Positions 4,095 through 4,991 of a stretch of 26,330 nucleotides of DNA are shown here, piece after piece. The notes beneath the pieces are model-generated. The model was not told the origin of the DNA. It saw only the letters and a program-made list of their open reading frames with translations, and made no database searches. The stretch is from the IMG/VR virus record IMGVR_UViG_3300032053_014531. The stretch is one strand, 5' to 3'. Positions within the stretch are counted from its first letter, which is position 1. Each line of letters begins with the position of its first letter. This DNA comes from a virus. The translations under genes and the position numbers were made by a program.

Positions 4095-4991
4095 TTACTT
4101 CACCAAGCACTCCTTCACGAGCTGGAGTGCCATCTCCGTCGTTATCCCTTTCCCCGTCTTCGCGATGAACCCGCCAGGGTGCGCGAATATGATATTCGCA
4201 CGCCCCGTCAGCTTAGCGAAGTTCACTCTGGGGTCATCGTTGAATCGATACAGCGCCAGCCCCTCACCGCGGTCATCCAGCGAGATCGAGAACGCATACT
4301 CGATCCCTTCGGAGGCTTTGGAATCGCGGAGCATCTGTAGCCCCGTCGTGTCCTTCGACAGGTACACGATACCTTTCACACCGTCGACATCGACGATGTC
4401 GGCGTTGTCTCGCAGCTTCGTTATGGCCGCTTGCTGCTTGTCCAGGTACTCGATCGTGTTGCCTCCGACACCAGCGAGAAACTGCCGCAGGTCTGCAGGC
4501 AGTGCGCCGTCACCCTCACTCGTCGCACTTTCGATCATGGCTTTGATAGCCCCTTCGACGGGCCCGAGCAGCCCGAAGGGAAATCCCCTGAGCCCCTCTT
4601 TCTTGGCCCACTCGTACGGTCCGCGGTCATCGATGAACTCCATGACCTTGAACCACTGCGTGAACGCCCGCAGCTGGCGGAGCCGCTCAGGGTACTTAGC
4701 CTGCAGATACAGGGTCAGCGCGCAGATCGGCGGATTGTTGACCACTCCGAGGTGGTGGTCGTAATTGTTCAACAGCGGCGCGTGCTGCCCGCCGACATCC
4801 ATCACTAGCACGCTCATGTCATCCATTTCTTCCACCGTCGGATCCCGCCTGAACACCGGCAAAGGGTTCAGTATCGCGCCTAACCCCTCGCCCCTCTCGA
4901 GGTTGAGCGCGAGCGCGATGCACATAATGTCGTCCGTGTGCACCTGCCCGCCATGGACAATGATCTTCTTGATTTTGGTTTTGAGTTTCAT
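4095..4991 (-). CDS. MYG1/UPF0160-family metal-dependent hydrolase
   Basis: IVHGGQVHTDDIMCIALAL (cf. MYG1 GTHNGTFHCDEALACALL); MDVGGQHAP...NNYDHHL (cf. VDVGGEYDP...YDHHQ); C-terminal IIFAHPGGFIAKTGKG (cf. IFVHASGFIGGHRT). Confidence 0.8.
   Translation of the reverse strand: MKLKTKIKKIIVHGGQVHTDDIMCIALALNLERGEGLGAILNPLPVFRRDPTVEEMDDMSVLVMDVGGQHAPLLNNYDHHLGVVNNPPICALTLYLQAKYPERLRQLRAFTQWFKVMEFIDDRGPYEWAKKEGLRGFPFGLLGPVEGAIKAMIESATSEGDGALPADLRQFLAGVGGNTIEYLDKQQAAITKLRDNADIVDVDGVKGIVYLSKDTTGLQMLRDSKASEGIEYAFSISLDDRGEGLALYRFNDDPRVNFAKLTGRANIIFAHPGGFIAKTGKGITTEMALQLVKECLVK

Follow-up and report, generated by a model that had tools for sequence, protein, structure and literature searches.

The window analysed here is a 26,330-nucleotide (nt) stretch of viral DNA, IMG/VR record IMGVR_UViG_3300032053_014531, considered at its full length. 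We investigated one of its genes, an open reading frame (ORF) at 4095-4991 on the minus strand, for which a first-pass annotation had proposed a metal-dependent hydrolase of the MYG1/UPF0160 family. The ORF starts with ATG and encodes 298 residues, the stop codon being counted in the span. Through this gene the window exposes a large, unstudied sister family of MYG1 that is found in huge phages, in bacteria of the Planctomycetes-Verrucomicrobia-Chlamydiae (PVC) group and other bacteria, and in Asgard archaea. The gene, its signals and its motifs are listed below. Residue counts refer to 259 aligned members of this short family, and dN/dS denotes the ratio of non-synonymous (dN) to synonymous (dS) divergence.

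The MYG1-like gene and its motifs

4095-4991, minus strand: short-form MYG1/UPF0160-like DHH-superfamily phosphoesterase gene, predicted from the ORF, Pfam, HHalign, AlphaFold2, DHH fold matches and dN/dS
4995-5000, minus strand: Shine-Dalgarno-like GGAGAG, read from the sequence, with GGAG 5 nt before the ATG
4929-4955, minus strand: motif I, H13-G-G15-Q-V-H18-T-D20-D21, putative metal-ligand cluster, aligned to human MYG1 residues
4788-4799, minus strand: motif II, D65-V-G67-G68, the DVGG of MYG1 (D65 in 258/259, G67 in 259/259)
4749-4760, minus strand: motif III, D78-H79-H80-L81, predicted catalytic DHH, family-wide DHHQ (DHH in 258/259)
4617-4631, minus strand: motif IV region, D121-D-R-G124-P125 (D121 and G124 in 259/259, P125 in 253/259)
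4260-4277, minus strand: C-terminal motif D239-D-R241-G242-E-G244, specific to the short family (R241 in 256/259, G244 in 257/259, D239 in 244/259)
4155-4187, minus strand: C-terminal motif F269-A-H271-P-G-G274-F275-I-A-K278-T (H271 in 256/259, G274 and F275 in 257/259, K278 in 245/259)
5027-5044, minus strand: terminator-like hairpin with a 7-bp stem, 6 GC pairs and a T-run, between the upstream 166-residue ORF and the MYG1-like gene
4042-4072, minus strand: terminator-like hairpin with a 14-bp stem and a T-run, directly after the MYG1-like stop codon

The three signature segments quoted in the first-pass annotation are all present, namely H13...D21, V66-G67-G68...Y77-D78-H79-H80 and G273-G274-F275. 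They include motifs characteristic of the DHH superfamily (I, H13..H18-x-D20; II, D65; III, D78-H79-H80), each of which, together with motif IV (D121), is kept in at least 256 of the 259 members. The hairpins belong to a region rich in such elements: a consensus scan found 8 terminator-like sites between 3600 and 5700, compared with 1.7 expected from shuffled sequences.

Relationship to MYG1/UPF0160

To place the protein we compared it with profile, sequence and structure databases. Pfam PF03690 (MYG1_exonuc) was matched above its gathering cut-off (E=2.3e-6, 27.9 bits versus 22.1), so that the significant UPF0160 match on which the first assignment depended was indeed obtained. This match is local and aligns residues 9-80 with profile positions 1-63 of 318. 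It was the only Pfam match at E<=0.01, with neither DHH (PF01368) nor DHHA1 (PF02272) being found, and PHROGs and NCBIfam returned no match for the protein. When the single sequence was searched against the PDB sequences, human MYG1 (24ah) ranked at the top with a weak E=0.34; in the alignment the N-terminal motifs and the C-terminal H-x-x-G-F-I block were collinear with the human protein.

Much stronger similarity was seen with profiles. Among 5.8 billion proteins 92 relatives were found, all of them metagenomic and most 270-300 residues long. A precomputed PF03690 match exists for 91 of these, including all 89 full-length ones, and four “hypothetical protein” labels are their only annotation. 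A profile built from a family alignment of 41 relatives (A1) detected human MYG1 (24ah) in the PDB at E=7.8e-17. We then aligned A1 with an alignment of 11 animal MYG1 sequences (A2), which consists of database entries only and was fetched using a human query that is 96% identical to the database MYG1 P0228. HHalign yielded a probability of 99.1% and E=7e-19 over 265 columns, pairing residues 7-289 with 36-363 at 20% identity. Against one human MYG1 sequence (approximate) the alignment was limited to 72 N-terminal columns.

The resemblance to MYG1 goes well beyond chance. Since the profile alignment spans the full length at 20% identity, we regard the window protein as very probably a true but very divergent member of the MYG1/UPF0160 family. 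The residues H13, G15, H18, D20, D21, R48, R49 and P51 are present, align with the residues of human MYG1 and are kept in 236-259 of the 259 members. DVGG and DHH are present as well, the glutamine after DHH being replaced by L81. In the HHalign alignment canonical MYG1 has a D-x-x-D-N-G segment opposite the motif IV region, and H271, G274, F275 and I276 align with human H-A-S-G-F-I, where the following G-G is exchanged for A-K. The original assignment therefore stands at the level of the family, with the amendment that the protein represents a short subfamily of its own rather than canonical MYG1, and that Pfam sees only the N-terminus of it.

Predicted fold

Structure prediction with AlphaFold2 on A1 was confident (predicted local distance difference test, pLDDT, 93.2; predicted template modelling score, pTM, 0.85). 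According to this model the window protein adopts a two-domain DHH-type fold, in which a DHH catalytic domain is combined with a DHHA1-like C-terminal domain. The top Foldseek matches in the PDB belonged to the DHH superfamily only, with PAP phosphatase 8a8k (probability 1.0), family II pyrophosphatases and RecJ; exopolyphosphatase was also among the matches, and the C-terminal domain matched the DHHA1-like C-Ala domain of alanyl-tRNA synthetase. As the PDB fold libraries are older than the MYG1 structures (24ah etc.), these matches are to be read at the level of the superfamily.

Among viral structure models (BFVD) the best whole-chain match was the 279-residue Pithovirus LCPAC403 protein A0A481ZBC9, with E=1.5e-6 and a template modelling (TM) score of 0.55-0.58 over 300 columns. 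This protein, which is uncharacterised, stems from a giant virus of eukaryotes and is 17% identical to the window protein; it probably represents another viral MYG1-like protein. Jumbo-phage and giant-virus DHH phosphohydrolases of a generic type ranked next.

Residue conservation and selection

At least 256 of the 259 members keep H13, G15, H18, D20, R48, D65, G67, D78, H79 and H80 as well as D121, G124, R241, G244, R249, H271, G274 and F275. The first-pass annotation had proposed the conservation of the His/Asp metal ligands as a check; all of them are kept without any loss. The window protein retains all near-invariant residues except for the Q81L replacement. Position 81 is occupied by Q in 240/259 members and by L in 2, and by Q in 11/11 animal MYG1 sequences (A2). 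L81 is also found in a strain variant that is 86% identical (L068; homologous loci are given L numbers).

Comparison of the window gene with L068 provided dN=0.099 and dS=0.478, i.e. a dN/dS of about 0.21, and the gene is thus under purifying selection. Nearly all changes fell into residues 84-196, the middle helical region, and six were scattered elsewhere. The low ratio and the concentration of the changes in the middle show that the gene is maintained by selection. The enzyme is apparently active and catalytically competent.

Family size and distribution

When 1.84 billion cluster representatives were searched exhaustively with the profile, 708 matches were obtained at E<=1e-30, 2,264 at E<=1e-10 and 5,303 at E<=1e-3. 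The best 150 matches were full-length, most of them 270-310 residues long. The short MYG1-like family is neither rare nor exotic, as it comprises at least 708 clusters at 50% identity. When 50,697 deposited phage genomes were searched by tblastn using three different family queries, no match was obtained. The view that this is not a usual phage gene is supported by the absence from these records and by the lack of a PHROG match. The family recurs in large uncultivated phages and also occurs in ordinary chromosomes of several bacterial and archaeal phyla.

IMG/VR contained 14 loci, 12 of which were on contigs of 40-300 kb. Several metagenomic relatives were located on contigs of 90-200 kb that are rich in small ORFans and carry genes for a GpA-type terminase, an SMC-like ATPase, a fused multisubunit RNA polymerase, RNase H and AcrVA2-like proteins. 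Such contigs belong to large or huge phages, and their GC content ranges from 29% to 64%.

Scanning one genome per prokaryotic species with a tight alignment (A3) provided 38 loci. Cellular loci occurred in Verrucomicrobiota, Kiritimatiellia, Calditrichia, Myxococcota, Desulfobacterales and Promethearchaeota (Asgard); for Verrucomicrobiae bacterium DG1235 the gene was on a 5.5 Mb scaffold. The flanks were ordinary chromosomal genes, such as those for methionine aminopeptidase, RmuC, anthranilate synthase, DnaJ, carbonic anhydrase and UvrD. In a rough neighbour-joining tree the cellular sequences formed a few clades, and the viral ones branched deeply and mostly apart from them. Such deep and separate viral branches argue against a recent capture from the sampled hosts. 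The searchable literature held no account of the family in phages or as a distinct subfamily, and no newer mechanistic or structural paper on MYG1/UPF0160.

One further locus (L057) was found on a 249-kb contig of an Ilumatobacteraceae metagenome-assembled genome (MAG), where a MYG1-like fragment lies at the contig end among small ORFs. The fragment is 43% identical to the window protein in the best segment, and the GC content is 59% compared with 58% in the window. This contig may represent a prophage, or phage DNA that was binned wrongly, and could hint at an actinobacterial host.

The surrounding phage region

The genes of the window, nearly all of which lie on one strand, include the following.

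113-760, minus strand: calcineurin-like phosphoesterase (phrog_547, 3.6e-45)
753-3998, minus strand: tandem array of about nine small paralogous cysteine-rich ORFs of 89-202 residues, with no significant Pfam or PHROG match
5056-5556, minus strand: 166-residue ORF between the major-vault-protein (MVP)-like and MYG1-like genes, about 57% identical in L067 and L068
5657-8290, minus strand: 877-residue MVP-like ORF (Pfam MVP_shoulder 5.5e-26, Vault_3 1.4e-8)
9020-9400, minus strand: PTH2-like ORF (Pfam PTH2 E=0.046, 14.4 bits versus a cut-off of 23)
9483-10397, plus strand: 304-residue Pro/Ala/Gln-rich low-complexity ORF, opposite to nearly all genes, no family match
10413-10489, minus strand: transfer RNA gene tRNA-Ile with the unusual anticodon AAT (ARAGORN; Rfam tRNA 46 bits)
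13533-14135: phrog_5051, function unknown
14119-14709: phrog_11947, function unknown
20468-21238, minus strand: HNH endonuclease (phrog_99, 3e-24)

Most remaining ORFs between 10 and 26 kb had no PHROG match. Small ORFans, the PHROG matches of the phosphoesterase and the HNH endonuclease, and an MVP-like gene of the huge-phage type bear out the viral-type neighbourhood that had been noticed at first. The window is probably an accessory region of a large uncultivated and probably huge phage. The phosphoesterase family phrog_547 is widespread, with 1,540 phage records and 33-34% identity in the records listed. The MVP-like ORF has a far narrower range: its only relatives among GenBank phages (tblastn) were LR756500, LR756501 and LR756503, genomes of 462-735 kb with 40-45% identity. 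Phage MVPs have been reported previously (bioRxiv 10.1101/2023.11.10.566534).

The cysteine-rich ORFs share an N-terminal C-x2-C-x3-[SG]-A-x-C-L motif and a second C-x2-C pair. Their array is 97-100% conserved in the strain variants L001, L067 and L068. Between strains the downstream cysteine-rich ORFs are 97-99% identical, and so is the end of the MVP-like gene in L067. The variable 166-residue ORF, together with the MYG1-like gene at 86% identity in L068, suggests a recombination boundary.

The PTH2-like ORF has its PTH2-like N-terminal segment, HFIVTRNDLPYG..., ahead of the first ATG/GTG/TTG, such that a non-canonical start codon would be required. Even with this N-terminal extension the match to Pfam PTH2 remained below significance.

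Gene neighbourhoods across the family

To see which genes accompany the family, we surveyed the neighbours of the MYG1-like gene in 114 non-redundant loci (78 viral or metagenomic, 36 cellular); none of the neighbouring gene families proved to be conserved among them. Same-strand tRNA genes were found within 1 kb in 6/114 loci (L004, L014, L021, L066, L101 and L126). In L014 the MYG1-like gene lies inside a nine-tRNA array, and in the cellular locus L066 a tRNA is located 21 nt upstream. Over all 114 loci the number of tRNA-bearing loci per kb was 0.041 at a distance of 0-0.5 kb compared with 0.006-0.011 at 4-10 kb; at 0-1 kb they were about four times denser than at 4-10 kb (binomial p about 0.02).

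Genes of other RNA-related proteins recurred as well. A PolyA_pol/CCA-adding enzyme gene adjoins the MYG1-like gene in three arrangements: in L060-L065 the two genes have overlapping stop and start codons, in the related locus L029 the CCA-adding enzyme is on the other side, and in L083, a distant lineage (31% and 39% identical to L060), PolyA_pol is joined by an HD domain. A Ro60/TROVE gene adjoins it in two unrelated loci, L015 and L079. Eukaryotic vaults contain a TROVE-domain protein; no MVP gene was found in L015 or L079. RNase H genes stand on both sides of the MYG1-like gene in L020, and an RNase_H_2 gene lies upstream of it in an Asgard MAG. The individual features at these loci, and an HD-domain gene belonging to the same phage as the window, are as follows.

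L015 8056-9906: Ro60/TROVE plus vWA protein, directly upstream of the MYG1-like gene on a 200-kb IMG/VR viral contig
L015 4941-5312: transfer-messenger RNA (tmRNA), 4.7 kb upstream of the MYG1-like gene (Rfam 76.7 bits)
L021 11148-17903: fused multisubunit RNA polymerase of 2,251 residues (Rpb2, Rpb1 domains) with intein and LAGLIDADG signatures, located on a 136-kb contig right after the MYG1-like gene and a tRNA-Arg
L001 9021-9641: HD-domain protein of 206 residues, same phage as the window, about 3.4-4.0 kb past the window start (Pfam HD E=2.9e-4)

The last of these lies outside the window at 7.5 kb from the MYG1-like gene and is 34% identical over 137 residues to the HD region of the CCA-adding enzyme of L060. 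A scan of the window and six loci at the Rfam gathering threshold revealed tRNAs and one tmRNA only, and no structured RNA beside the window gene.

Altogether the recurring neighbours point to RNA metabolism, though as minority associations and with a weak tRNA statistic. They agree with the only known biochemistry of the family, the RNA exonuclease activity of human MYG1. The RNA-directed role that the first-pass annotation had considered is thus backed by neighbours that recur elsewhere in the family, not by the set of genes that it had proposed within this window (see below).

Proposed function

The 3'-5' exonuclease activity of human MYG1 is directed preferentially at RNA and depends on its DHH motif (PMC6582341), and yeast MYG1 contributes to the restriction of a double-stranded RNA virus (PMC10089162). 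Given this background, the best-supported reading, to which we give an even chance, is that the window gene encodes a stand-alone metal-dependent 3'-5' exoribonuclease or oligoribonuclease that acts on RNA 3' ends and serves the phage as an accessory gene. We likewise see RNA as a substrate with an even chance, and would propose a tRNA-like specificity only tentatively. What the data show is to which family and fold the protein belongs, which residues are conserved, that the gene is under purifying selection and in which contexts it occurs; metal use, RNA as the substrate, polarity and biological role we infer.

A possible mechanism can be outlined along the model. The N-terminal residues H13, H18, D20, D65, D78, H79/H80 and D121 would hold divalent metals that activate a water molecule. 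In the DHHA1-like C-terminal domain, H271-x-x-G-F-x-x-K278 together with R241 and R249 would bind the substrate phosphate. Hydrolysis of a phosphodiester at the RNA 3' end would then release 5'-mononucleotides, in line with the reaction reported for the human enzyme. As substrates, 3' tails of small structured (tRNA-like) RNAs or short oligoribonucleotides would be most likely, and the phage might gain RNA 3'-end processing, repair or turnover.

A more specific version can be envisaged, which we regard as doubtful. Here the short family would be an exoribonuclease dedicated to trimming the 3' ends of tRNA-like RNAs (tRNA, tmRNA, Y-RNA-type) that works with CCA-adding enzymes and Ro60/TROVE in RNA maturation or repair. 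Huge phages would carry it for the maturation or repair of their own or host tRNAs, e.g. of tRNAs damaged by tRNA-targeting host defences. If true, the poorly understood MYG1 proteins would obtain a concrete, testable substrate class.

Several points weigh against an RNA exonuclease. Identity to characterised MYG1 is about 20%, and the middle region and the C-terminal GFIGG differ. Q81L replaces, beside the catalytic DHH, a residue that is conserved in both MYG1 branches. The supporting neighbours are in the minority, with a tRNA within 1 kb in the few loci given above, a handful of CCA-adding enzyme or TROVE cases and a p of about 0.02; moreover, the tRNA of L004 was called by ARAGORN and is below the Rfam threshold. 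The window itself has no RNA-related gene adjacent to the MYG1-like gene, and the nearest tRNA, the tRNA-Ile, is 5.4 kb off. The DHH class also hydrolyses pAp, cyclic dinucleotides, polyphosphate and pyrophosphate, and for this reason the fold alone does not fix the substrate.

Alternative explanations

The main rival, which we consider unlikely, is an anti-defence phosphodiesterase that degrades cyclic di- or oligonucleotides (CBASS, type III CRISPR), cyclic di-AMP (c-di-AMP) or pApA/pGpG. For some jumbo phages, Iyer et al. 2021 (PMC7824862) predict that DHH phosphodiesterases act against the signals of SMODS (CBASS-type) and type III CRISPR systems. The fold would permit such an activity. 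Moreover, the MYG1-like gene stands alone, is mobile and is found as an accessory gene where the genomes of large phages vary; an AcrVA2-like gene is located about 6.5 kb from it in L020. By sequence, however, the nearest family is MYG1 and not GdpP, NrnA or Pde2, with no Pfam DHH/DHHA1 match and no GGGH motif. The recurring neighbours are RNA-processing genes rather than defence or anti-defence genes, and cellular members reside among housekeeping genes (methionine aminopeptidase, anthranilate synthase, DnaJ, UvrD) rather than among signalling or defence genes. PADLOC returned no match for the window protein and two cellular homologues. In the contexts examined the short family had no tie to defence or signalling genes, and the window protein falls into no known defence or anti-defence family of PADLOC or PHROGs. 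If degradation of signalling nucleotides were nonetheless true, it would constitute a new anti-defence family.

Less probable again is a nucleotide-pool enzyme that acts as a phosphatase on pAp or nucleotides, or hydrolyses polyphosphate or pyrophosphate, and thereby feeds salvage during infection. This would suit the top Foldseek match, PAP phosphatase 8a8k, and the family II pyrophosphatases and exopolyphosphatase found with it. Some neighbours fit in as well: in L060-L065 the MYG1-like gene is followed by a cytidine deaminase gene with DeoC nearby, NUDIX hydrolase and ribonucleotide reductase occur as single neighbours, and a Ham1-like NTP pyrophosphatase is encoded upstream of it in L021. 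Yet the nearest characterised homologue acts on RNA, and the salvage-gene neighbours are confined to single lineages.

According to the first-pass annotation, the MYG1-like gene, the PTH2-like ORF, the tRNA-Ile and the calcineurin-like phosphatase may form a co-functioning host-manipulation set, which we now consider very improbable. All four members lie on one strand within about 10 kb, and the phosphatase is a genuine phage phosphoesterase (phrog_547). The MYG1-like gene is, however, isolated by the terminator-like hairpins on either side. Between it and the phosphatase lie nine unrelated cysteine-rich ORFs, and on the other side the MVP-like gene and further ORFs intervene before the PTH2-like ORF and the tRNA are reached. 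The PTH2 match itself is insignificant (E=0.046). Clustering of the ORFs by all-against-all BLAST, carried out for L001-L021 plus the window and then for L022-L059, revealed no conserved neighbour beyond close relatives. A Pfam scan of 107 immediate neighbours in viral and metagenomic loci gave a heterogeneous picture with no PTH2 and one Metallophos match. No other window gene was common to the homologous loci except in the strain variants and for the phosphoesterase of L101; at this sole other locus a 35%-identical phosphoesterase is paired with the MYG1-like gene at a distance of about 3.8 kb. With no conserved neighbour, and with hairpins on both sides of the gene, we see no functional set, and the absent co-occurrence largely refutes it.

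A decaying or catalytically dead remnant, e.g. through Q81L, is the most improbable of all: Q81 is invariant in animal MYG1 and kept in most members, and the viral homologue L016 appears frameshifted, but the ORF of the window is intact, every other conserved residue is kept, comparison with a variant that likewise has L81 gives a dN/dS of about 0.21, and the structure prediction is confident.

Significance

MYG1 is conserved from bacteria to humans and has been linked to mitochondrial RNA processing, vitiligo and yeast antiviral defence. DHH-superfamily enzymes are expected in large phages, and the window gene alone is an ordinary accessory hydrolase. Its value lies in being an entry point to the unsettled function of MYG1-type enzymes. 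The occasional partners of the family (tRNA genes, CCA-adding enzymes, Ro60, RNase H) are suggestive of RNA 3'-end metabolism, and the short family offers a tractable prokaryotic and phage system with explicit candidate substrates on which the action of MYG1-type enzymes could be tried. The repertoire of huge phages gains another RNA- or nucleotide-directed accessory enzyme.

Comparison with known systems

Acb1, Apyc1 and AcrIII-1 have 2H, metallo-beta-lactamase and ring-nuclease folds, respectively, and thus differ from DHH proteins. The NrnA/NrnB nanoRNases and the pAp phosphatases are DHH-DHHA1 enzymes; like them, the window protein is predicted to hydrolyse RNA ends in a metal-dependent manner. 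Jumbo phages such as Bacillus phage AR9 possess NrnB-like DHH proteins. NrnA and NrnB differ, however, in having the Pfam DHH/DHHA1 domains, a D-x-D motif I and the substrate-binding motif GGGH. The window protein has H..H.D in motif I and, at its C-terminus, H-P-G-G-F-I-A-K with GGGH absent. The likeness of NrnA/NrnB to the window model is at the level of the superfamily only, with a TM score of about 0.3. The cyclic and linear dinucleotide phosphodiesterases GdpP, Pde2, DhhP and PggH and the DHH phosphodiesterases of jumbo phages (Iyer et al. 2021) are comparable as phage accessory genes, but fall into a different sequence family.

The closest known system is canonical MYG1 (human MYG1/C12orf10, yeast YER156C, PF03690, 24ah), with which the window protein has collinear full-length homology. 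Both share the N-terminal H-x-G-x-x-H-x-D-[DE], R-x-R-D-P (R-R-D-P in the window protein), DVGG, DHH, the C-terminal H-x-x-G-F-I block and a stand-alone two-domain architecture. They differ in length, the short family having about 280-300 residues compared with 330-380 for canonical MYG1, and the middle helical region of the window protein bears no recognisable likeness to it. Motif I reads H-N-G-T-F-H-C-D-E in canonical MYG1 and H-G-G-Q-V-H-T-D-D in the window protein, and DHHQ is replaced by DHHL. The C-terminal motif of canonical MYG1, F-V-H-A-S-G-F-I-G-G, continues as GFIGG[HN], in contrast to GFIAKT in the window protein. An extra conserved D-D-R-G-x-G...R-x-x-D-D-P block is found in the short family, and the window protein is phage-borne. 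In the rough neighbour-joining tree canonical MYG1 occupies a long branch apart from the short family. The window protein thus is a divergent short form of a known family that PF03690 already captures weakly, rather than a new kind of system.

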